A DNA stretch of 24,530 nt, from positions 1 to 24,530 of the forward strand of contig JASLZZ010000068.1 of the NCBI GenBank assembly GCA_030754595.1, given 5' to 3'. Under the pieces are notes generated by a model. That model was not told the origin of the DNA. It saw only the letters and a list, made by a program, of their open reading frames with translations, and did no database searches. The translations under genes and the position numbers were made by a program. Numbering within the stretch: the stretch's first letter is position 1; every line of letters begins with the position of its first letter. Shown piece after piece: positions 2,267-24,298 of this stretch. The DNA is from Nitrospinota bacterium. GTDB taxonomy: Bacteria; UBA8248.

Positions 2267-4738
2267 TTGAATCAGCTGACCGGAAACGCAAAAGCGTCCG
2301 GAAAAGGCAAAAACGGGGCCCCGCGAAAGCACCACTCGAAGGAGGGCCGCATCCGGAAGTATTGGAATGCCGCCCTCGAGTCGAAGGTCTTTCCCTGGGT
2401 GTTGGGCGCCACCCTCGCCGCCGCGCTGTCGCTCCTGATAACAACAGGCCTGACCGTCAAGTCGGCCGACTACCAGGCCGGCGACATCGCCCGGCGAGAC
2501 ATCAAGGCTCCCAGGGATATGCGTCTTGAAGATGCCGCGGCCACCGAGGCGCTCCGCGAGCAGGCGCGGGAGAAGGTCCTGCCGCACTACGATGTGGACC
2601 CCAAGCTAAAGGAGAGGCTGGAGCGGCAGGTCCGGAGCGCGTTCGAATTGATCCAAAAGGCGCAGGCGGGCCAGTCCGCCACCGTCAGGAACCGACTGCT
2701 CAATCTCCGAGCGAAAACCGGGGGCGGCACCCTCATCGATGAATCCCGGGTCTACCGGGAATTGTTTCGCTCCAAGACGTTTCATTCCGCGGAAACCGCT
2801 CTTGGCCGTTCGCTGAGCGGAGCGCTCTCACCGGGGCTCATCCGGGTATTCCGTAAAGAGCGTTACGCCCCGTGGATTGGAGAGGACATCCTGAAGCTTG
2901 TCCGGGCCGCTCTCTCGAGAGGGATCGTCAGCGACAACCGCCTCTACACCCTCCACACGGTTAAAGGAATCATCGTCCGGGATATCCGCACCGGAAACAG
3001 GGTGCCCCTTCCGGCCTCCTTCGAGCCTCTGGAACTCAGGAAAGTGGAAAAATTCCTCGTCCGCCAGGCGGAGAGCAAGAAACTGCCGTTTTCTTCCTCC
3101 GGGCGCGCGCTCCTGGCGGCCCTGGCGGCGCGGCTGGTTCAACCCACCCTGAACTTTAACAACCAGGATACGGTCGAGGCCCAAAAACGCGCGGCGGAGA
3201 AAGTGGCGGCGGCGAGCCGGGTGCTCAAGAACGGGGAGATGATCGTCCGCGAAGGGGAACGGATCAGCGAAAGCAAGCTGGCGACGCTCCGCGCACTCGA
3301 GAGAAAAGGGCGCCAGGCCTACATCGTTGACAACTTCCTTGGCACCTCCATTTTGATCGCCTTCTTTCTGGGTTTCGCTTGGACCGCCGCGCAGCGCTAC
3401 GACTTGGGACTCCTCAGGGCTCCCAGGAGCGTGGGTCTGTTCGTTTTGCTGCTGCTCGCCCACGCGGTTTTGCTCAAACTCGGCACACTTTTGGCCAACG
3501 AACTACAAGAGACGGCGCGCGGGGTTGACGTATTCACCTACTACCTGGCGATCCCCTTGGCTTCCGCCGCGATGCTGGCGGGCATCCTTCAAGGCCGATC
3601 GACGGCGGTTTTGATGGCTGTCATGTCGGCGGCGCTCACCGGCCTGTTGATTCCCGGTGACGTGCACTTCAGTCTCATTGCGTTGGCCGGCGGCACCTAT
3701 GCCGCGATTAATTGGAAGGACTACCGGCACCGCACATCCATCCTCGTCGCGGGCTTGATGATCGGTCTGGCGAACGCCGCCCTTGTTTTCGGCTTCAACC
3801 TCCAAGGCGGTCTCCGCTTCGCGATGGAGAGGTGGGCGGACGTGCCCTTCGCCTTCGCCGGCGGCCTAGCTAACATTATTATCGTTTCAGCCGTCATGCC
3901 GCTTCTCGAGGCGGCCTTCAAGCTAACGACCGACATGAAACTCCTGGAACTCTCCGATCAGAACCATCCTCTCCTCCGCCAGCTCGTGGTCCGGGCGCCG
4001 GGCACCTACCACCACAGCCTCATTGTCGGGAACCTCGCCGAGGAAGCCGCCGAGGCCGTCAAGGCGAATCCGCTGCTCATCCGGGTCGGGGCCTACTTTC
4101 ACGATGTCGGAAAAATCGTCAAGCCCGAATACTTCATCGAAAATCAGGGGCAACTGAACAGACACGACAAGCTCAGCCCCTCGATGAGCGCGCTTATTCT
4201 CATCAGCCACGTCAAGGAAGGTCTTGAAATGGCGCGGAGTCATAAGCTGCCCAAGGAGATATGCGATCTGATCTGCCAGCACCACGGCACCTCGCTCATC
4301 CGCTACTTCTTCGAGAAAGCCAAAGAGCAGGAGGCCGAAGGGTCGGACATCCACGAGGAGGTCTACCGCTATCCCGGTCCCCGGCCCCAAACCCGCGAGG
4401 CGGGTATCCTGTTGCTCGCCGACATGGTGGAGGCCGCCTCGCGCTCCCAGGCCGACCCTTCCCCCGCGCGGCTGGCCGGCCTTGTCGAGCGCCTTGTGCA
4501 GATGGCTTTCACCGACGGCCAACTCGACGATTGCGACCTCACCCTCCGCCATCTGAGTCAGATCCGGGAGGCCTTCCTCCGGGTGCTGGCCGGCATCTAT
4601 CACCACCGAATCATCTACCCCGAAAAGTCATCATCCGAGCGGAAAGGAAACAATGGGGATATCCATCACAAACCGGCAAAGGAAGGCGCGCATCAGCCTC
4701 GCGCGGCTACGCCGGCGGGCGGCGGCGGTCCTGGATAA
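2267..4738 (+). CDS. pgpH: 7TM-HD phosphohydrolase, PgpH/YqfF-like (putative cyclic-di-AMP phosphodiesterase)
   Basis: N-terminal TM helix, large extracytoplasmic domain and about 7 TM helices. HD domain motifs APGTYHHS, YFHDVGK, YFIENQ, QHHGT, YPGPRP and LADMVEA. Conserved phoH-(7TM-HD)-ybeY order. TTG start with GAGGA SD. Confidence 0.88.
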   Translation: MNQLTGNAKASGKGKNGAPRKHHSKEGRIRKYWNAALESKVFPWVLGATLAAALSLLITTGLTVKSADYQAGDIARRDIKAPRDMRLEDAAATEALREQAREKVLPHYDVDPKLKERLERQVRSAFELIQKAQAGQSATVRNRLLNLRAKTGGGTLIDESRVYRELFRSKTFHSAETALGRSLSGALSPGLIRVFRKERYAPWIGEDILKLVRAALSRGIVSDNRLYTLHTVKGIIVRDIRTGNRVPLPASFEPLELRKVEKFLVRQAESKKLPFSSSGRALLAALAARLVQPTLNFNNQDTVEAQKRAAEKVAAASRVLKNGEMIVREGERISESKLATLRALERKGRQAYIVDNFLGTSILIAFFLGFAWTAAQRYDLGLLRAPRSVGLFVLLLLAHAVLLKLGTLLANELQETARGVDVFTYYLAIPLASAAMLAGILQGRSTAVLMAVMSAALTGLLIPGDVHFSLIALAGGTYAAINWKDYRHRTSILVAGLMIGLANAALVFGFNLQGGLRFAMERWADVPFAFAGGLANIIIVSAVMPLLEAAFKLTTDMKLLELSDQNHPLLRQLVVRAPGTYHHSLIVGNLAEEAAEAVKANPLLIRVGAYFHDVGKIVKPEYFIENQGQLNRHDKLSPSMSALILISHVKEGLEMARSHKLPKEICDLICQHHGTSLIRYFFEKAKEQEAEGSDIHEEVYRYPGPRPQTREAGILLLADMVEAASRSQADPSPARLAGLVERLVQMAFTDGQLDDCDLTLRHLSQIREAFLRVLAGIYHHRIIYPEKSSSERKGNNGDIHHKPAKEGAHQPRAATPAGGGGPG

Positions 4739-8939: not shown

Positions 8940-8969
8940 TTGAGAGATGAGGGGGAAATCCGCTAGAAT
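8940..8969 (+). promoter_or_regulatory. Candidate sigma70 promoter for the DUF4390-kinase-REC/LpxC unit
   Basis: TTGAGA (8940-8945), 18-bp spacer, TAGAAT (8964-8969). The inverted repeat CGGATT (8936-8941)/AATCCG (8957-8962) overlaps it. Confidence 0.55.
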
Positions 8970-8992: not shown

Positions 8993-9628
8993 ATGTACGG
9001 TAAAGTGATGAATTTTTGTGGATTATGGCGGTCCGTGGCGGCAGCCAGGAGATTTTTTGCCGGAACTCTCCTGGTTTCGGGGATGATGCTCGCCGCTTCG
9101 CCCGCCCTTGCCGCTCCCGATGGCAAAAGCGCCCCCGAAATTAAGGACGTTGCGGTCGTGGAAAAAAAGGGCCGCCTCCTCGCTTTCGTGTCATTGGGGA
9201 GCGCCTTCTCGCCCAAGGTGTTCGAGGCCCTCCACAGCGGGGTGACGACCCGATTCACCTACGAGATCGCGCTGATGCGAGACCGGGCCGTTCTCTTCGA
9301 CATCGAGATGGACCGACAAACCCTGACTCACCAGGTGAAATTCGACGCCTTGAAGAAGGCATACACTTTTATCTCCCAGAACGGATCGGACGAGAAAATC
9401 GAGAAAGTCACGAAGGTCCGGAAGAAAATGATGGACTGGATGGCAGAGATCAACGGCCACGCCATCGCGAAGACCAGGGCGCTCGACCCCAAAGCGCGGT
9501 ATTATCTACAGGTCCGCGCCAACCTGAACTCGGTGAAATTCGCATTTCCGTTCAACTACATGCTTTCGTTCCTGAACAGCAAAACGCCGTGGGCCGCTTC
9601 ACCGCTCTTTGGTGCGAGAGGTATGTAG
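8993..9628 (+). CDS. DUF4390-like exported protein
   Basis: Signal peptide ending ASPALA-AP. Patterns EALHSGV-x3-F-x-Y-x-I-x-L, VKFDALKK-x-Y and YYLQVRA-x-L...FPF...TPW. Lies immediately upstream of an NtrY-like kinase, the typical DUF4390 context. Confidence 0.75.
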   Translation: MYGKVMNFCGLWRSVAAARRFFAGTLLVSGMMLAASPALAAPDGKSAPEIKDVAVVEKKGRLLAFVSLGSAFSPKVFEALHSGVTTRFTYEIALMRDRAVLFDIEMDRQTLTHQVKFDALKKAYTFISQNGSDEKIEKVTKVRKKMMDWMAEINGHAIAKTRALDPKARYYLQVRANLNSVKFAFPFNYMLSFLNSKTPWAASPLFGARGM

Positions 9629-9632
9629 CGCC

Positions 9633-11897
9633 ATGTATCCCACGAGTATGGATTACGATGAGATCGCCCTTCGACGGCGCAAGAACATCCGGAGGGCGAC
9701 CCTCGGCCTGATCGGCTTCACCATTCTCTTGCTCACGGCGTGGATTTATTTCAAGGAGCTTGAGCCGGGAACGCCTCTGCTGAATAATGTCGTCGTATTC
9801 GCCCTCGTCAACCTGAACATTATTCTCTTGATGGTTCTGGCCCTGCTCGTCGTCCGGAACCTCGTTCGCCTGTACCACTCCTCTCGGCAAGGCGCCGGCG
9901 GTCTCCGCCTTCAGGCGAAACTCATCGCCGCCTTCGTGGGTTTCACCCTCGTCCCCTCGGTTCTTTTATTCGTGATCGCGAGCGGTCTCATCAACCAGAG
10001 TTTCAATACCCTTTTCAACATGAAGGTCGAGGGAGCGCTGAAAGGCTCTTTCCAGGTCGCCCAGACCTACTACCGGGAATCGGAGCAAAGCGTCATGGCT
10101 GCCTCGAATCGGCTCGCCAAGAGCATCGAGGCGAACGGGTGGGGGAGCCTCGAGAAGAAGGAGGTGCTGAAGGCCTACATCAAGAGCGTTCGAGGGGACC
10201 TCGAGGCCGATGCGATTCAGCTTTTCAGCGCCGATCGAAAAAGCCTGGCCTATGTTCTTCGCGACAAGCTGCCCTCGGCGACGAGCTTTTCCGCGTCGCA
10301 AGACTACCTCGAAAAGGTGCTTCAGGGCGAGACCAGAACGAGCGTTGAAAGCTGGGGGGGAGGGGAGGCGATTCATGGTGTCTCGCCCATCAAGTCCGGC
10401 GCCAAGATAATGGGATTCGTCGTCGTGTCCCGCTATATTCCCGAACGGCTGGTCGCGAAAGTCGAGGGAATCATCAACGCCTATGAAGACTACAAAGAGC
10501 TCGAACTCTCGAAAAATCCGATCAAGGCCAGCTACATCATTACTTTTCTTCTCATGACGCTGTTGATCCTCTTTGCCGCCATCTGGTTCGGTTTCTACAT
10601 CGCGCGCGGCATCACGGTGGCGATCGAAGAACTGGCCGAAGGCACCCGCGCCGTCTCCGAAGGCGACCTCGACTACCGGGTCGATGTCCAGGCCGACGGC
10701 GAGGTGGGAATACTCGTGAAGGCCTTCAACAACATGACCCACGAGCTTAAGGTGAACAAACAGGAAATCGAGGCTGCGACCCTGGACCTCCAGCGCTCGA
10801 GCGCCGAAATCGACCGCCGCCGGCGCTATATGGTGGCCATGCTCGAGAATATCGGAACCGGCGTGGTTTCCATCAACCGGAGGGGGAGGATCACCATTCT
10901 CAACAACGCCGCCGCGGACCTCCTCCGGATTCAGTCGGACTGGGCCCTTGGGCGTCCCTTCAACGAGGTGTTCAAGGTGCATCACCTCGAGCCTATAAGG
11001 CATTTGCTGCGGGCGATGCGCAAGAGAGGCAAAAAGAGCGTTTCCGAGCAGCTCGAGGTCCTGATCGACGGCCAGCTGAGGACCCTCCGGTCGAGCCTGA
11101 CCCTGCTCGAGGGCTCTGACGGCAGGCACCTGGGTGCGGTCGTCGTTTTCGACGATCTATCTGTCCTCATCCGCGCCCAGAAAGTCGCCGCTTGGCGCGA
11201 AGTGGCGCAGGGGATCGCTCACGAAATCAAAAATCCCCTCACTCCCATCCAGCTCTCAACGGAGAGGATGCGCCGAAAATTCGAACAGGATGCGGTGGAT
11301 TTCCCCGAAGTGTTCGAAATCGCCACCGACACCATCATCTCTCAGGTGGAAGGGCTGATGGATCTGGTAAACGAATTCAGCCGCTTCGCCCGGTTGCCGG
11401 AGCCCCGGCTTTCTCCCTGCGGCATCGGCTCCTTGATCGATCAGGTGGTGAATCTCTACCGGGAACGGCGCGGAGACATCACTCTCGAAAAAGAGATAGA
11501 AGGCGCACTGCCCTCGGTCATGGCCGACCCTGATCAAATCCAGCGTGTTTTGATCAATTTGCTCGAAAACGCATTCGATTCCATGGAGTCCGGAGGCCGT
11601 GTGACATTGCACGCTCATGCGGATGCCGAACGAAGTCAGCTGGTCGTTGAGGTGTCCGACGAGGGCGGCGGAATCCCCGTCGAGAACAAGGAGCTCATAT
11701 TCTCTCCTTATTTCTCGACCAAGTATCAAGGCTCTGGGCTTGGGCTCGCCATATGCCACAGAATCATCGACGATCACAACGGCGAAATCACTGTGCGCGA
11801 TAACCAACCGTGCGGATCCGTATTCCGCCTCACCCTGCCGCTGGCACCATCGTCATCGGAGCCGGCCAGCATCGAAAGGACGGCCGCGATTGGATAA
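9633..11897 (+). CDS. NtrY-like membrane sensor histidine kinase (TM-periplasmic-HAMP-PAS-HisKA-HATPase)
   Basis: Three N-terminal TM helices, a periplasmic domain and another TM. HAMP (IEELAEGTRAVSEGDL...EVGILVKAFNNM), PAS (TGVVSIN..GRITILN.AA), H-box AWREVAQGIAHEIKNPLTPIQL, N-box NLLENA, G1 DEGGGI, F-box FSPYFSTK and G2 GSGLGLAI. Confidence 0.93.
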   Translation: MYPTSMDYDEIALRRRKNIRRATLGLIGFTILLLTAWIYFKELEPGTPLLNNVVVFALVNLNIILLMVLALLVVRNLVRLYHSSRQGAGGLRLQAKLIAAFVGFTLVPSVLLFVIASGLINQSFNTLFNMKVEGALKGSFQVAQTYYRESEQSVMAASNRLAKSIEANGWGSLEKKEVLKAYIKSVRGDLEADAIQLFSADRKSLAYVLRDKLPSATSFSASQDYLEKVLQGETRTSVESWGGGEAIHGVSPIKSGAKIMGFVVVSRYIPERLVAKVEGIINAYEDYKELELSKNPIKASYIITFLLMTLLILFAAIWFGFYIARGITVAIEELAEGTRAVSEGDLDYRVDVQADGEVGILVKAFNNMTHELKVNKQEIEAATLDLQRSSAEIDRRRRYMVAMLENIGTGVVSINRRGRITILNNAAADLLRIQSDWALGRPFNEVFKVHHLEPIRHLLRAMRKRGKKSVSEQLEVLIDGQLRTLRSSLTLLEGSDGRHLGAVVVFDDLSVLIRAQKVAAWREVAQGIAHEIKNPLTPIQLSTERMRRKFEQDAVDFPEVFEIATDTIISQVEGLMDLVNEFSRFARLPEPRLSPCGIGSLIDQVVNLYRERRGDITLEKEIEGALPSVMADPDQIQRVLINLLENAFDSMESGGRVTLHAHADAERSQLVVEVSDEGGGIPVENKELIFSPYFSTKYQGSGLGLAICHRIIDDHNGEITVRDNQPCGSVFRLTLPLAPSSSEPASIERTAAIG

Positions 11898-13221
11898 GGC
11901 ACAAATCCTCATCATTGACGACGAAGAGAGCATTCTTTCGACTCTTGAGGGGATTCTCGAGGACGAAGGGTACCGGACCCTCACAGCCAACTCGGGCAAG
12001 ATTGGCTTGGAACTCGTGCGCAACGAAAAGCCGGACGTCGTTCTGGTCGATGTGTGGATGCCCGGAATCGACGGCATTGAAACGCTCCAGGCGGTCAAGG
12101 AAATGCACCCAAGGGCCGAAGTTGTTGTCATGTCGGGCCACGGCACCATCGAAACAGCGGTGGCGGCCACGAAACTCGGGGCCTTCGACTTCATCGAAAA
12201 GCCGCTGTCGATGGAATCGATTCTTCGGGTCGTCGATTCGGCGGTTCGGACCCGCCGGAAGAACAAATCCGCCCCGTCCCCCGGAAAAGGGAAACCGACG
12301 GGTGCGAGAAAAAGCCGCGCCATCAATACGCCGGGCGTGCACGGCGAAACCGCCAAGAGCGTAGAGGCAGCTGGCCGGAACGGTTCCTTCGAAAGACAGC
12401 AAATGACGATCCGGCGGAGCGTCGTTTTATACGGCCGCGGACTTCACTCGGGACTCAAGACGGGTCTCATTCTCGAGCCCCTCCCGCCGGACAGCGGCAT
12501 TCGTTTCGGGAACCTGAGCACTCCGGACACTATCGCCGCACAGGCGGAATTCGTCGATAACACCAACCACGCCACCAACCTTCGAGCCAAGGACGTGGTT
12601 GCCCGGACCATCGAGCATCTCATGAGTGCGCTTCATGCCTACGGCGTCTCCAATCTGCTGGTCAAACTCAGCGAGGAGGTTCCCATCCTGGACGGCTCCT
12701 CGAAGAAGTTTTGCCGCCTTATCGAGGACGCCGGGCTGGAGGAGCAGGCAGAGGAATTATCTCCCATCGTTATTGACCAGGTGTTCGAGACTGGAGAGCC
12801 CGACTCTCCGGATGGCTACATCAAGGTGGAACCGGGCGAGGGATTTTCGGTTTCATACGACATGGATCTTCCCGAGCCCGTCGGAAAACAGTCATTCGAG
12901 TATCGTCACGATAGTATCAAGGGCTACCAGAATGAGATTGCGCCCGCGCGGACATTCAGTTTTATTTGGGAACTCGAAGCGCTCGAGGAAATGGGCCTGG
13001 GCGAGGGGGGGCGCTGGGGCAATTTCATTCTGATCGACAGCGAACGTGTCGTAAATACCGAGCTCCGTTTCCCGGATGAGTTTGTCCGCCACAAAATTCT
13101 CGACATCATTGGAGATATGTACCTGTTGGGCCGCCCCATCGAGGGGAGGGTCTCCGCCTTCCGGTCGGGCCATCGCCATAATGTCGGCCTTGTTCGACGT
13201 ATCGCGGAGTCCTTGCTTTAA
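11890..13221 (+). CDS. lpxC: Response-regulator receiver domain fused to UDP-3-O-acyl-N-acetylglucosamine deacetylase LpxC (443 aa)
   Basis: TTG start at 11890 with GAAAGGA SD, overlapping the kinase stop. REC: ILIIDDE, LVD(54)VWMP, MSGHG, FIEKP. About 50-aa linker. LpxC: Q-x-T..GRGLHSG, TIEHLMSAL, EVPILDGSS, EIAPARTF, RFPDEFVRHKILDIIGD, SGH. No stop or frameshift between the domains. Confidence 0.92.
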   Translation: MDKAQILIIDDEESILSTLEGILEDEGYRTLTANSGKIGLELVRNEKPDVVLVDVWMPGIDGIETLQAVKEMHPRAEVVVMSGHGTIETAVAATKLGAFDFIEKPLSMESILRVVDSAVRTRRKNKSAPSPGKGKPTGARKSRAINTPGVHGETAKSVEAAGRNGSFERQQMTIRRSVVLYGRGLHSGLKTGLILEPLPPDSGIRFGNLSTPDTIAAQAEFVDNTNHATNLRAKDVVARTIEHLMSALHAYGVSNLLVKLSEEVPILDGSSKKFCRLIEDAGLEEQAEELSPIVIDQVFETGEPDSPDGYIKVEPGEGFSVSYDMDLPEPVGKQSFEYRHDSIKGYQNEIAPARTFSFIWELEALEEMGLGEGGRWGNFILIDSERVVNTELRFPDEFVRHKILDIIGDMYLLGRPIEGRVSAFRSGHRHNVGLVRRIAESLL

Positions 13222-13261
13222 TAGGCTGAACTCCCGTGTCATTTTTCCAAAGGAATCGCAC

Positions 13262-14326
13262 TTGGACGAACGACCATCCCTGACCTATCGATCGGCGGGC
13301 GTGGACGTATCCGCGGGCGAGAGTTTCGCCGAGAAAATCGCTGGCGCGTTGCGCTCGACCCACCTGGCGCACCCGGGGCGCATCCTGGGCGAGGGTTCCG
13401 GTTTCGCGGGCATGTTTCGCCTGGGGGCTTCTTATCGCGACCCCGTCCTCGTTTCGGGAACCGATGGCGTCGGGACGAAGCTCAAGCTGGTCCAGCGCCT
13501 CGGAGCCCACGCGGGGATCGGAGTCGATCTGGTGGCGATGTGCGTGAACGATGTCATTACCTCGGGTGCGGCTCCGCTATTTTTCCTTGATTACATCGCC
13601 TCGGGGAAACTCGAGCCCGAGGTCTTGGCGTCCGTCGTCGATGGAATCGCGCAAGGTTGCCTGGATGCCGGCTGCGCGCTCCTAGGCGGCGAGACCGCCG
13701 AGATGCCCGATTTCTACGAGGCCGGAGTCTACGACCTCGCCGGATTCGCGGTGGGCGCGGTCGAGCGGGAGGAAATCCTGGAGGCGTCGAATGTCAGGGG
13801 AGGAGACGTGCTCATCGGTCTGCTTTCCTCGGGGATTCACTCGAACGGCTACTCGCTCGTCCGGCGGGTGTTCGACGACCCCGATGAATGGGCCGGAGAT
13901 GAGATTCATCCAGGCCTGGATACCAGCCTGAAGGAGGCGCTTCTCGCTCCCACCCGAATTTACGCCTCGGCCGCCAACGCCATCAGGGGGCAAAAAGGCG
14001 TGCACGCCATCGCCCACGTTACGGGCGGCGGGCTCCCGGGGAACGTGAACCGGATCCTGCCACCCAGCCTTCAAGCGGTGTTTCGTCCCGGAAGCTGGCC
14101 GGAGCCTGGTATTTTCGGGCTCATCGAAAAACGTGGGCCGGTCCGCCGCGATGAAATGTTCGGAACCTTCAATATGGGGATCGGCCTTGTCGTCGCGGCC
14201 GATTCGGGCGCCGCCGGCGAGGTAATGGATGCCTTGAGGAAGTCGGGCGAGGCGCCGTGCCGCGCCGGCGAGGTTCGCGCGAGAAAAGAGGGGGCGGCTG
14301 TCGTCATCGAGGGAGTTGAGCCATGA
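13262..14326 (+). CDS. purM: Phosphoribosylformylglycinamidine cyclo-ligase (AIR synthetase)
   Basis: TYRSAGVD, GTDGVGTKL, DLVAMCVND, PLFFLDY, GGETAEMP, SSGIHSNGYSL, HVTGGG, FNMGIG. TTG start at 13262 with AAGGA SD. Confidence 0.96.
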   Translation: MDERPSLTYRSAGVDVSAGESFAEKIAGALRSTHLAHPGRILGEGSGFAGMFRLGASYRDPVLVSGTDGVGTKLKLVQRLGAHAGIGVDLVAMCVNDVITSGAAPLFFLDYIASGKLEPEVLASVVDGIAQGCLDAGCALLGGETAEMPDFYEAGVYDLAGFAVGAVEREEILEASNVRGGDVLIGLLSSGIHSNGYSLVRRVFDDPDEWAGDEIHPGLDTSLKEALLAPTRIYASAANAIRGQKGVHAIAHVTGGGLPGNVNRILPPSLQAVFRPGSWPEPGIFGLIEKRGPVRRDEMFGTFNMGIGLVVAADSGAAGEVMDALRKSGEAPCRAGEVRARKEGAAVVIEGVEP

Positions 14327-20098: not shown

Positions 20099-20128
20099 TT
20101 GACGTTTCCTCCTCCAAACCCTTATATT
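20099..20128 (+). promoter_or_regulatory. Candidate sigma70 promoter upstream of the small Cys-rich ORF and tRNA
   Basis: TTGACG (20099-20104), 18-bp spacer, TATATT (20123-20128), in the intergenic region after proS. Confidence 0.6.
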
Positions 20129-20217
20129 TACTCGCCGCTCGCCAAAGGAAGGCGCCTTTCGGGTGAAAAAACCGGAGGGGTCGGCTTGGTGGTGTTTCGG
20201 CAGGAAGGACGGACGCT

Positions 20218-20406
20218 GTGGCGTCTCCCGGAATTCGCGAATGCGTGGTTTGCGCTTGGCGAGAAACCTGCCGCCTGAAATGGAGAAACGAACCGAGCGG
20301 GGCGCTTCATTGTCCCGAGTTCACTTTTGACCTGCGGTTCGCCCAGAAGCAGCCGCAAGCGGAAAATCATCTCGAACACCCTTCCGAACAGGGGGCCAGT
20401 GAGTAA
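20218..20406 (+). CDS. Small hypothetical 4-Cys protein (62 aa)
   Basis: GTG start with GGAAGG SD and an upstream promoter. Motif C9-x2-C12-AWR-x2-C18-x13-C32-PEF. Fits the gap between proS and the tRNA. Confidence 0.65.
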   Translation: MASPGIRECVVCAWRETCRLKWRNEPSGALHCPEFTFDLRFAQKQPQAENHLEHPSEQGASE

Positions 20407-20580
20407 TGCGACGGGAAATCGAAATCCTAATCTTGGTATTTCTCGGTTATATGTGTCTGATGCTCGGGCTTCGGATGGAAGACATCGGGTTCCGGGTATT
20501 TTTCTATATTCTTTCCGGAATGTTCGTCCTCGCGATCTTTCGTCCGAAGGTACAGCCCTGAATCGGACGATTTTTCTCCC

Positions 20581-20657
20581 GGCGGTGTAGCTCAAGCGGT
20601 TAGAGCACGCGGCTCATATCCGCGGTGTTGGGGGTTCGAGTCCCTCCACCGCCACCA
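20581..20657 (+). tRNA. tRNA with CAT anticodon, most likely elongator tRNA-Met
   Basis: Acceptor GGCGGTG/CACCGCC plus A-CCA. D arm GCTC/GAGC. Anticodon stem CGCGG/CCGCG with loop CTCATAT (CAT at 20615-20617). T arm GGGGG-TTCGAGT-CCCTC. G1-C72 is paired, so it is not the initiator. Confidence 0.93.
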
Positions 20658-22363: not shown

Positions 22364-24298
22364 TTGAATCAATTTTATAAAAATTTGGCTTTATGGCTCA
22401 TCATTGGTCTCATCATGGTTGGGCTGTTCCAGGCGTTTAACGGCGCCCGCGCCCTCGACCGAAATATCGTCTACAGCGATTTTATCCGATCCGTAAACCA
22501 GGGGCAGGTCAGCGAGGTTCTTGTCCAGGGAGACAGCATCCGCGGTCGCTACCTCAACGGAAAAGTTTTCCAAACCTTCGCGCCTAAAGATCCGAGCCTA
22601 ATCTCCACACTCAGAAATAAAGGGGTGCGAATCAGCGCCGAACCCGCCGAGCAAAACTCGTGGTATATGAATCTGCTCATGAGCTGGTTCCCGATGCTCG
22701 TCCTGATCGGGGTCTGGATTTTCTTCATGCGACAGATGCACGTTGGCGGCTCCAAGGCCCTCTCCTTCGGAAAGAGTAAGGCGCGCCTTGTCTCCGAGCC
22801 GGATAAAAAGAAAGTCACCTTCAAGGATGTCGCTGGGGTCGAGGAGGCCAAAGATGAACTGGTGGAAATCGTAGAATTCCTTCGGGATCCGCCTAAATTC
22901 ACGCGCCTCGGCGCACGGATTCCCAAAGGGGTGTTGCTGGTCGGCCCCCCCGGAACAGGGAAAACCCTCCTCGCCAGATCTATCGCCGGGGAGGCCGATG
23001 TTCCCTTTTTTCAGAGCAGCGGATCGGGTTTCGTTGAAATGTTCGTCGGCGTCGGGGCCTCCCGTGTCCGCGACCTCTTCGAGCAGGGCAAAACCAACGC
23101 GCCATGCATCGTTTTCATCGACGAAATCGACGCTGTCGGACGCCACCGGGGCGCCGGGCTGGGAGGCGGCCACGATGAGCGCGAGCAAACCCTTAACCAG
23201 CTACTCGTCGAGATGGACGGCTTCGAATCGAACGACGGGGTAATCCTCATCGCGGCGACTAACCGGCCCGATGTTCTCGACCCGGCGTTGTTGCGCCCGG
23301 GCCGCTTTGACCGGCAAATTGTCGTTTCGCTGCCGGACATTAAAGGCCGCCTCAAAATTCTTCAGGTGCACGTCAAGGATATCCCGCTTGATGACTCCGT
23401 TGACCTCAAGCTCATCGCCCGCGGCACCCCCCGTTTCTCCGGGGCCGACTTGGCGAACTTGCTGAACGAATCCGCATTGATCGCGGCCGTTCGGGGTAAA
23501 AATTCCGTCGAGATGGCCGACCTGACTGAGGCCAAGGACAAGGTCTTGATGGGAAAAGAGCGGCGCAGCCTCGTTTTGAGCGAAAAGGAAAAAGAGAATA
23601 CCGCTTATCACGAGGCGGGACACGCCCTCGTGTCTCTGTTCACCCCCGGGACGGATCCGGTGGAGAAGGTAACGATCATTCCGAGGGGGTTTTCCCTGGG
23701 GAGCACCTGGTCGTTTCCGGAAGAGGACCGCTACAGTGAGGACAGGACCTACCTTCGGAATCAACTCACGATTTTGATGGGAGGCCGGGCGGCCGAAATC
23801 CTGGTTTTCGACGAAATGACCACCGGAGCCAAGCAGGATATCCAGAGTTCCACCGAGATTGCCCGAAATATGGTCTGCGAGTGGGGGATGAGCGATGAAC
23901 TCGGGCCTCTTGCCTACGGGAAGAAGAACGAGCAAATTTTCCTGGGGAGGGAGCTATCCCAGTCCCGTGATTACAGCGACTCCATCGCTTTGACAATCGA
24001 CAAGGAAGTCAAGGAATTGGTCACAACCGCCTATGATCGGGCGATAAAGTTGCTTGAAGATAACCGCGCCAAGCTCGACCTTCTGGCACATGCGCTACTC
24101 GAGTACGAGACTCTCGATAAAGACGAGATCAGCACCTTGCTCGAAACAGGGGAGGTTTCGAGTGCGCTAAAGAAAAAATTCGAGAACATCCGGAACGAAG
24201 CCTCAAGCGAACCTTCATCAGATCAGGAGGCGCCTCCGCGTACCCAGAAAGGCGGTCCGCGCCCATCCTCACCGGATTTGGCTCCGGGGCAAGCCTAG
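22364..24298 (+). CDS. ftsH: ATP-dependent zinc metalloprotease FtsH
   Basis: Two TM helices, [17 protein letters not shown] pore loop, [29 protein letters not shown] and HEAGH zinc motif. TTG start. Confidence 0.97.

Follow-up and report, generated by a model that had tools for sequence, protein, structure and literature searches.

An NtrX-type receiver fused to LpxC in a Nitrospinota bacterium and its relatives

Among the genes in a 24,530-nucleotide (nt) stretch of DNA from a Nitrospinota bacterium (assembly GCA_030754595.1, contig JASLZZ010000068.1; hereafter the window, meaning the whole stretch) is one that places a phospho-receiver (REC) domain on the same polypeptide as LpxC. LpxC is the control point of lipopolysaccharide (LPS) synthesis and a major antibiotic target; most of what is known of how it is regulated comes from enterobacteria (FtsH/LapB). 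The locus raises the question of whether this joining is real, how it arose and what a receiver might do for such an enzyme. Examination of the gene and its relatives reveals a genuine, conserved response regulator with LpxC as its only output domain. Comparison across genomes traces a tie between LpxC and NtrY/NtrX-type systems through three successive states, in which LpxC is 1) a neighbor of the system; 2) fused to the whole regulator; 3) fused to the receiver only. Together, the recurrent fusion and the neighbor linkage point to a selected coupling between kinase and LpxC.

The fusion gene and its parts are as follows:

11890..13221, + strand: REC-LpxC fusion gene, TTG start, 443 residues, the only LpxC found in the genome
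11905..12234, + strand: receiver (REC), residues 6-115, NtrX type, with D10/D11/D54/S82/K104 (Pfam Response_reg)
12049..12051, + strand: codon GAT of the phospho-acceptor Asp54 (translation and alignment)
12274..12387, + strand: disordered basic linker, residues 129-166, the scar of a lost AAA+/helix-turn-helix (HTH) module (AlphaFold2 predicted local distance difference test, pLDDT, <50)
12400..13206, + strand: LpxC domain, residues 171-439, with E242/H243 (12613-12618), T355, H401/K402/D405/D409 (13090-13116) and H428 (13171-13173)
12403..12405, + strand: internal ATG (Met172) within the first residues of the LpxC domain, not conserved as a start

The N-terminal part of the protein matches the Pfam Response_reg family (PF00072) over residues 6-115 (7e-30, profile positions 1-110 of 111), and its AlphaFold2 model assumes the (beta-alpha)5 fold, with five strands alternating with five helices and a pLDDT of 74-94 per 10-residue block. 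The solved structures that match it best are 4d6x and 5m7n, both structures of NtrX, and the best NCBIfam regulator model is likewise that of NtrX (NF051870, 1.3e-35). At 123 bits the protein does not reach the cut-off of 600 set for NtrX by NCBIfam, and a Pfam search of its 443 residues found neither an AAA+ nor a Fis-type HTH domain; to judge from these matches it is derived from NtrX, yet is not an NtrX. A set of 121 relatives (the 120 best database clusters and P0001; 45-98% identity) showed that D10, D11, D54 and K104 are invariant in all rows that bear a residue there, while position 82 is serine in 112 and threonine in 9. Among 37 full-length representatives clustered at 50% identity the acceptor position is aspartate in 35.

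The C-terminal part is a practically complete LpxC: PF03331 matches residues 171-439 over profile positions 1-267 of 268 (1.5e-78, 264.5 bits), the NCBIfam lpxC equivalog TIGR00325 is passed with 231.2 bits against a cut-off of 187.25, and solved LpxC chains match at up to 2.9e-49. Residues H243, H401, D405, E242 and H428, together with T355, K402 and D409, align with the same motifs of solved LpxC (E242-H243 is encoded by GAG CAT at 12613-12618, H401 to D405 by 13090-13104 and H428 by 13171-13173); the first five correspond to the two histidines and the aspartate that bind zinc in LpxC and to its catalytic glutamate and histidine. E242, H243, T355, H401, K402, D405, D409 and H428 are all invariant in the residue-bearing rows of the 121 relatives, and seven LpxC residues are kept in 37 of the 37 full-length representatives at 50% identity. 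By the measure of this conservation, both halves of the protein are under purifying selection.

The translation of 11890-13221 contains no internal stop. Its TTG start falls within the end of the kinase gene before it (TAA stop, last position 11897), an overlap of 8 nt, and is preceded, by eye, by a purine-rich GAAAGGA at a distance of 9-10 nt; close relatives begin with the same residue (e.g. MDKGQILIVDDE in P0004), and one of them, P0002, is also 443 residues long. A genome of the same genus (G050) offers a 443-residue match at 95% identity. Two contigs from the marine metagenomes of two other studies (X5, 7.9 kb; X9, 10.6 kb) span 11600-13400; each has 2 substitutions there and neither an indel nor a joint, both being near-identical to the window and possibly its own source DNA. 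One contig from an RNA library (X16) covers just 13079-13349, from the 3' end of the fusion into purM, and is uninformative on transcript structure. The ATG at 12403 was considered as a second, internal translation start and rejected as a conserved feature, position 172 being methionine in just 2 of the 121 relatives and arginine or lysine in 118. The assembly is 3.55 Mb in size and 96.9% complete, and across it the fusion is the single match to PF03331, with LpxB and LpxD both encoded on another contig; hence the lipid A pathway of this organism probably depends on the fusion protein.

These results bear out most of what had been read from the letters of the window alone. That sequence-only reading had described one uninterrupted open reading frame of 443 residues, a complete NtrX-like receiver (here D10/D11, D54, S82 and K104, with 4d6x, 5m7n and the NtrX model as best matches), a full LpxC with all its zinc and catalytic residues and, between them, a basic linker, which indeed holds 13 lysines or arginines, 4 prolines and 7 glycines in about 50 residues; the codon positions it gave for D54, E242-H243, H401 to D405 and H428 are exact. 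It had advised a look at coverage over 12250-12400, a region that the X5 and X9 contigs cross intact, and at whether the genome holds another lpxC, which the single PF03331 match answers. It had also held that production of LpxC from an internal start only would speak against the idea, and the rarity of Met172 indicates that no such separate translation of LpxC is conserved.

The same architecture is widespread. All 120 of the best database clusters contain LpxC and 119 contain REC, the exception being P0104, whose sequence begins within the receiver. By size the set divides into 48 short REC-LpxC proteins of about 426-466 residues and 72 long ones of 623-748 residues (mostly 700-735) in which additional domains stand between the two; Pfam searches with four of the latter gave the order REC, Sigma54_activat/AAA_lid, (HTH_8), LpxC, and both AAA+ and HTH are present in long relatives such as P0021. 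At 50% identity, 67 of the best 150 representatives carry both REC and LpxC and 7 more are fragments without the N-terminus. The architecture is thus already in the databases under plain 'LpxC' names, uncharacterized. Partial states also occur: P0131 (491 residues) and P0132 (505 residues) are REC-HTH-LpxC proteins that have lost just the AAA+ domain, P0133 (650 residues) is REC-AAA+-LpxC without HTH, and P0059 (458 residues) is a short form that retains the last HTH helix. The GAFTGA motif, which contacts sigma-54, is found in none of 92 long-form proteins and loci and the Walker-B Asp-Glu is kept in just 3 of 86 long-form proteins, which marks the central AAA+ domain of the long forms as degenerate. 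The central AAA+ domain of NtrX is likewise degenerate, and the lack of GAFTGA is a trait that NtrX shares with these long fused relatives.

The named nearest relatives of the short forms bear the submitter labels Nitrospinota or Nitrospinae and in some cases Tectomicrobia, and short fusions at 45-49% identity come from records labeled Deltaproteobacteria, Thermodesulfobacteriota, Syntrophobacter, Syntrophorhabdus, Acidiferrales and Binatia. Four distant short-form loci show the order ruvC-ruvA-ruvB-ntrY-[REC-LpxC]-DUF2203, with NtrY upstream in all 4 tested (ruvCAB, DUF2203 and queG were Pfam-confirmed in L009 only, and ruvC, ruvB and DUF2203 in L007); three other distant short-form loci have no kinase immediately upstream.

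The region between the two domains records how the short form arose. In the AlphaFold2 model (65-row alignment) the protein consists of two well-folded domains (mean pLDDT 84; predicted template modeling score 0.79), with residues 129-166 below a pLDDT of 50; a disordered linker between two confidently folded domains is as expected for a tethered regulatory domain. No conclusion on domain packing was drawn from this monomer model, and a prediction of REC (1-125) and LpxC (168-443) as a complex, with 65-row alignments for each, scored 0.00 and is evidence for neither side. The linker cannot be aligned among relatives and its length is not conserved either: linker stretches are mostly about 40-75 residues in 49 short forms, and the gap between REC and LpxC is 22-70 residues in most short-form representatives of the 50% identity set. 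Homology to the long form P0011 ends near residue 129 of the latter and restarts near its residue 429, so that relative to P0011 some 300 residues are gone and about 33 unalignable ones are left. Out-of-frame remnants were sought by comparing five long forms with 12150-12450 of the window in all frames (tblastn), a comparison that returned the flanking in-frame homology alone and in which the exact deletion junction is not readable.

A maximum-likelihood tree on the REC and LpxC columns of 119 fused proteins (quick searches, LG+G4) requires at least 6 changes between long and short forms, at least 4 of which are forced by branches with Shimodaira-Hasegawa-like approximate likelihood ratio test (SH-aLRT) support of 95 or more; the 10-member short clade of the window is sister to the long P0011. 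An outgroup of 23 unfused LpxC and NtrX-receiver pairs taken from neighboring genes (rows more than 95% identical within a state dropped, 168 to 118 rows) set all 95 fused rows apart as one clade with 100% SH-aLRT, and the count of changes was unaltered. Between REC and LpxC the long forms share homology with the AAA+/HTH part of unfused NtrX-like proteins (custom profile, E 1e-47 to 1e-137), and this homology, together with the partial states, indicates that loss is the direction of change. The gene of the window descends from a more ancient protein in which a complete NtrX-type regulator (REC, AAA+, HTH) was joined to LpxC. In its genus an in-frame loss of some 300 residues took away the already degenerate AAA+ together with the DNA-binding domain, so that REC, a flexible tether of about 40 residues and LpxC remain, and across the tree AAA+/HTH was lost at least 4-6 times independently. 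All 5 genomes of the genus have the short form, which has also arisen separately in other lineages; it is therefore a derived and selected state and not a one-off deletion. The repeated stripping of the DNA-binding part, with the receiver almost always kept, is strong comparative evidence that receiver and enzyme are under selection as a coupled pair.

The sequence-only reading had named an AAA+/HTH region between the domains in relatives as a sign of mis-assembly or of such a one-off deletion; the region is there in the long forms, and its history favors the opposite view. Its description of LpxC as normally a single domain or a fusion with FabZ is incomplete: the REC/NtrX-LpxC architecture fills the top 120 clusters and 67 of the best 150 representatives. 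Its remark that no characterized example was known agrees with our full-text literature searches, which found no paper on a receiver-LpxC or NtrX-LpxC fusion, most subscription journals lying outside their coverage. In sum, the architecture, the NtrX-like receiver and the intact catalytic residues stand, the one-off argument and the statement on normal LpxC needed correction, and the finding is real, robust and more general than could be seen from the window.

The gene stands immediately downstream of two others that bear on its function:

9609..11897, + strand: NtrY-type membrane sensor histidine kinase with NtrY_N, HAMP, PAS, HisKA and HATPase_c
8993..9628, + strand: DUF4390 protein of 211 residues, PlrP-like, a putative periplasmic partner of the kinase (PF14334, 3.5e-24)
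8940..8969, + strand: promoter-like site, TTGAGA, 18 nt spacer, TAGAAT (10 of 12 matches; a consensus match only)

Pfam recovers all five kinase domains in order (NtrY_N at 1.6e-13), and the H-box AHEIKNP is visible in the translation. None of the 25 NCBIfam families listed for the kinase is an NtrY model; the best are those of other kinases and lie below their cut-offs. The DUF4390 protein has a hydrophobic, signal-peptide-like N-terminus with an ALA|AP site (by eye), and its gene abuts or overlaps ntrY directly on the 5' side, the listed TTG start of ntrY giving an overlap of 20 nt and an alternative ATG lying at 9633. The promoter-like site stands downstream of mutS, shortly before the DUF4390 gene, and is the sole + strand candidate before the three-gene module. 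Because DUF4390, ntrY and the fusion gene overlap or abut, they probably form one operon. A search of the genome for a second close copy of the NtrX module gave a best other match of just 34% identity, making the fusion the only evident partner of NtrY and the apparent sole output of the kinase in this organism.

Across the phylum of the window 50 of 51 genomes match the fusion, including all 29 of high quality, and a family search finds one LpxC gene per matching genome, always fused to an NtrX-type regulator. The genome without a match, G003, is 93% complete and gave no LpxC whether it was searched with the protein or with the Pfam family. Where the family search gave a double match, as it did three times, the hits are parts of a single gene that is broken at contig ends or, in G029, lies in two frames. 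The short form is found in 11 genomes, namely all 5 of the window's genus, G041, G025 (the lone short form among the 23 genomes of its genus) and 4 small genomes of genus g9, and the long form of about 720 residues, or fragments of it, in 39, including all those of the deeper families f2-f4. The order mutS-(DUF4390)-ntrY-[fusion]-purM is kept in 12 loci from 10 genera, with ntrY immediately before the fusion in all 11 loci that have upstream DNA, a DUF4390 gene in 7 of 10 that include it and purM on the 3' side in 12 of 12. This preservation of gene order shows that the short forms arose in place. No DUF4390 gene was detected in three loci of the phylum's deepest family (L095, L102 and L103, of G004, G001 and G007), where the gap between mutS and ntrY is about 60 nt in G004 and G001 and about 215 nt in G007; thus, the DUF4390 partner is not obligatory.

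As a separate observation, in the 8 Mb assembly of G029 the LpxC part of a long fusion extends over two reading frames (G029:C19:33661-34492), which suggests a frameshift or an assembly error.

A second phylum, that of the Syntrophales genome G051, preserves fused and unfused loci side by side. An even sample of 121 of its genomes yielded 119 LpxC loci; loci ranked by score were not used for the frequency of lpxC-ntrYX adjacency, as such ranking favors loci with both genes. Fusions account for 27 loci (7 long, 20 short), carried by 27 of the 121 genomes, in 6 of which ntrY lies directly upstream. Among the 92 unfused loci an NtrY-type gene follows lpxC on its 3' side in 26, at a distance of 13-836 nt (in one case 3462 nt), with an NtrX-type gene in 25 of these and a DUF4390 gene in between in 13; the other 66 have no such neighbor, about 14 of them with less than 3 kb of flanking DNA. 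Besides these 26 (among L106-L199), lpxC stands directly before ntrY and ntrX on the same strand in L020, L042, L044 and L068, which include DUF4390, and in L021, L053 and L075, which do not. The unfused NtrX-like proteins carry a full AAA+ domain (Sigma54_activat at 1e-71 to 1e-75) with GAFTGA in 47 of 62, and control of LpxC there would be transcriptional. The unfused lpxC-(DUF4390)-ntrY-ntrX arrangement is likely the precursor state of the fusion, though lpxC stands 5' and not 3' of the module in it.

One genome of this phylum (G085) has two LpxC genes, an unfused one with ntrY on its 3' side (L116) and, elsewhere, a short REC-LpxC (L223).

These states acquire meaning in the light of characterized relatives. 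The kinase of the window has the same architecture as the NtrY of Brucella, Rhodobacter sphaeroides and Caulobacter (NtrY_N, HAMP, PAS, HisKA, HATPase_c), and the receiver is of the same type by both NtrX structures and the NCBIfam NtrX model. The output differs: in place of transcription through AAA+ and HTH domains, the fusion protein presents an enzyme on the same polypeptide. NtrYX has a known tie to the envelope and to lpxC expression, deletion of ntrYX in R. sphaeroides raising lpxC mRNA 8.8-fold and LPS about 2-fold (PMC7240162); that study reports no NtrX site at lpxC. In Desulfovibrio vulgaris the only target mapped for the sigma-54-type regulator DVU2934 is lpxC, and in S. fumaroxidans lpxC adjoins the orthologous operon (PMC3333781); in its tie to lpxC DVU2934 resembles the 26 of 92 unfused loci in which lpxC lies directly upstream of ntrY. 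The DUF4390 gene before the kinase gene has its counterpart in the Bordetella PlrP-PlrS-PlrR system, where PlrP is the periplasmic third component of an NtrYX-family system and would, by inference, hold back PlrS as a phosphatase; the accessible sections of that paper do not speak of LpxC (PMC13001219). A 2025 review covers control of LpxC by NtrYX as transcriptional only, and the words 'fusion', 'fused' and 'response regulator' are absent from its text (PMC12444477). The same review describes control of LpxC by NtrYX and ChvGI in alphaproteobacteria, where the signaling family is the same as here (PMC12444477); unlike there, or in the FtsH/LapB system, the control element here is covalently attached to the enzyme.

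Response regulators whose output is enzymatic provide a second set of comparisons. CheB (REC-methylesterase), PleD and WspR (REC-GGDEF) and RpfG (REC-HD-GYP) likewise begin with a receiver that a flexible linker joins to a catalytic domain at the C-terminus, and the gene of the cognate kinase is adjacent. CheB and PleD supply two models of control, relief of autoinhibition and activation by dimerization. Unlike these signaling enzymes, the output domain here, the only copy in the cell, is a zinc amidase that serves primary envelope biosynthesis. LpxC-FabZ shows that LpxC can also be part of a multidomain protein; there, LpxC is followed on its C-terminal side by another metabolic enzyme of its pathway, whereas in the window a signaling domain precedes it, and the NCBIfam model for the bifunctional protein matches only the LpxC part of the fusion.

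In light of these connections, the best explanation, and one that we hold to be on balance probable, is that Asp54 of this NtrX-derived REC-LpxC is set by NtrY and that its receiver controls LpxC after translation. The membrane kinase NtrY would phosphorylate or dephosphorylate Asp54, probably tuned by the periplasmic DUF4390 protein as PlrS is by PlrP, and the state of the receiver would then set LpxC activity post-translationally and with it the flux into lipid A. By analogy with CheB, the likeliest mode would be intramolecular, with the tethered receiver blocking or freeing the LpxC active site or its acyl tunnel; alternatively, dimerization of the receiver might alter the oligomeric state, as in PleD and WspR. 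The proposed mechanism is plausible. Considering the possible modes together, we infer that steric or allosteric control, or receiver-driven oligomerization, ranks first, followed by degradation, then localization, and lastly reverse signaling or a passive fusion.

Several observations weigh against this explanation. In the second phylum 21 of the 27 fusions (L200-L212, L214, L215, L217-L223) have no NtrY-like gene within about 6 kb, so that adjacency to ntrY is not universal. A full-length NtrY was found elsewhere in 5 of 5 such orphan genomes tested, and such pairs suggest one kinase serving two receivers, if that NtrY has an NtrX of its own. The acceptor position is asparagine or serine in 2 of the 37 full-length representatives, indicating that some members work without phosphorylation. 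The effect of phosphorylation on LpxC is itself argued from CheB and PleD, and LpxC is monomeric in the systems studied, so that a dimerization switch has no known precedent in it. Furthermore, residues specific to the fused clade, relative to the unfused neighbors, number 21 in LpxC and 2 in REC, a split in which a co-evolved receiver surface is not clearly discernible. The LpxC positions include 192, 249, 251, 259, 275, 314, 328, 375 and 381 in the numbering of P0001, for example K259 where unfused LpxC has E, R375 where it has S, and C275; they form no interface that we could interpret and may just reflect a long branch.

The most serious alternative, though an unlikely one, is regulated proteolysis, in which the receiver would be a phosphorylation-dependent degron or adaptor handle like RssB or CpdR, so that NtrY would govern, by way of FtsH, Lon or ClpXP, how long LpxC persists rather than how fast it works. 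In E. coli the C-terminal tail of LpxC is the FtsH degron; the protein of the window ends just past the LpxC core with no such tail evident, which leaves room for another handle, and the disordered basic linker could be an initiation site for unfolding, though a sequence as unconserved as that of the linker is odd for a degron. No gene for an adaptor or protease is specifically linked to the module: ftsH (22364-24298) lies in the window beside tilS, and tilS-ftsH adjacency is a common arrangement. The genome yields no match to the LapB zinc ribbon (PF18073), a point of little weight for this alternative and in itself uninformative, as the model has 28 positions and hits 10 of 14 control genomes including Gram-positives. 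Proteolysis does control LpxC in the organisms studied (PMC12444477).

Improbable, in turn, is that the receiver serves localization or scaffolding, docking LpxC on NtrY, or dimerizing, near the later membrane-bound enzymes of lipid A synthesis, with phosphorylation releasing or recruiting it. In its favor, receivers bind the dimerization and phosphotransfer helices of their cognate kinases, ntrY is strictly adjacent throughout the window's phylum, and a homolog of LapB in Neisseria has been proposed to place LpxC at the inner membrane (PMC12444477). Against it, contacts between kinase and receiver are usually transient, and many second-phylum fusions are unlinked from ntrY.

There is still less to be said for reverse signaling, whereby LpxC would sense a substrate or intermediate and modulate the receiver as a phosphate sink or competitor for NtrY, with DNA binding as an added output of the long forms. 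The HTH kept next to LpxC in the long forms, and the coexistence of orphan fusions with a separate NtrY, which would provide two receivers if that kinase has its own NtrX, would suit this view; however, with no other close NtrX and no DNA-binding domain in the fusion of the window's genome the sink would be without a competitor, and the HTH has been repeatedly discarded while the catalytic residues of LpxC are invariant. Just as slender is the chance of a passive fusion, with LpxC constitutive and the receiver a leftover that merely ensures co-expression with the NtrY module. Fusions of neighboring genes can become fixed neutrally, and the loss of the acceptor aspartate in the two representatives noted above would fit, but a leftover would hardly keep its active-site residues invariant over 121 relatives, remain as conserved as the enzyme (53-73% identity of the REC match over the window's phylum) and survive at least 4-6 independent deletions of everything between it and LpxC. 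That the gene is an artifact of assembly or gene calling, two separate genes or a chimeric contig in an assembly of 138 contigs with an estimated contamination of 6.4%, has next to no probability, and mis-assembly can be ruled out, as the frame is open, the contigs of other studies cross the junction without an indel, and the same architecture recurs in all genomes of the genus as well as in single-contig genomes.

The natural fusion wires a sensor kinase directly to the cell's only LpxC and makes phosphorylation control of lipid A flux open to direct test. If the receiver does control the enzyme post-translationally, a signal at the membrane may reach the synthesis of outer-membrane lipid with no transcriptional step in between. 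The fusion also extends the known range of response-regulator outputs to an enzyme of primary biosynthesis, and it is a gene-fusion clue that backs the poorly understood link between NtrYX, envelope and lpxC drawn from alphaproteobacterial genetics, as well as the lpxC-specific regulator of Desulfovibrio. More tentatively, and with somewhat less confidence than doubt, we propose that DUF4390, NtrY and REC-LpxC make up a complete envelope-homeostasis circuit that has no transcriptional output and whose sole output is the rate or lifetime of LpxC. The series from lpxC next to ntrYX, through NtrX-LpxC, to REC-LpxC would imply that control of LpxC by NtrYX is ancient; within the same proposal it would be a core task of these systems, and their pleiotropic transcriptional roles in proteobacteria would be secondary.

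The remainder of the window is made up of genes in the order xerC/D-like, phoH, 7TM-HD receptor, ybeY, HIT and mutS, ahead of DUF4390, ntrY and the fusion, and purM, purN, lolA, rseP, ispG, proS, an unknown gene, tilS and ftsH after it. A minus-strand open reading frame of 155 residues between proS and tilS (20128-20595) has no Pfam match. Between phoH and ybeY, at 2267-4738 on the + strand, lies a gene for a 7TM receptor whose intracellular part is an HD hydrolase (7TMR-HDED, 7TM-7TMR_HD and HD).

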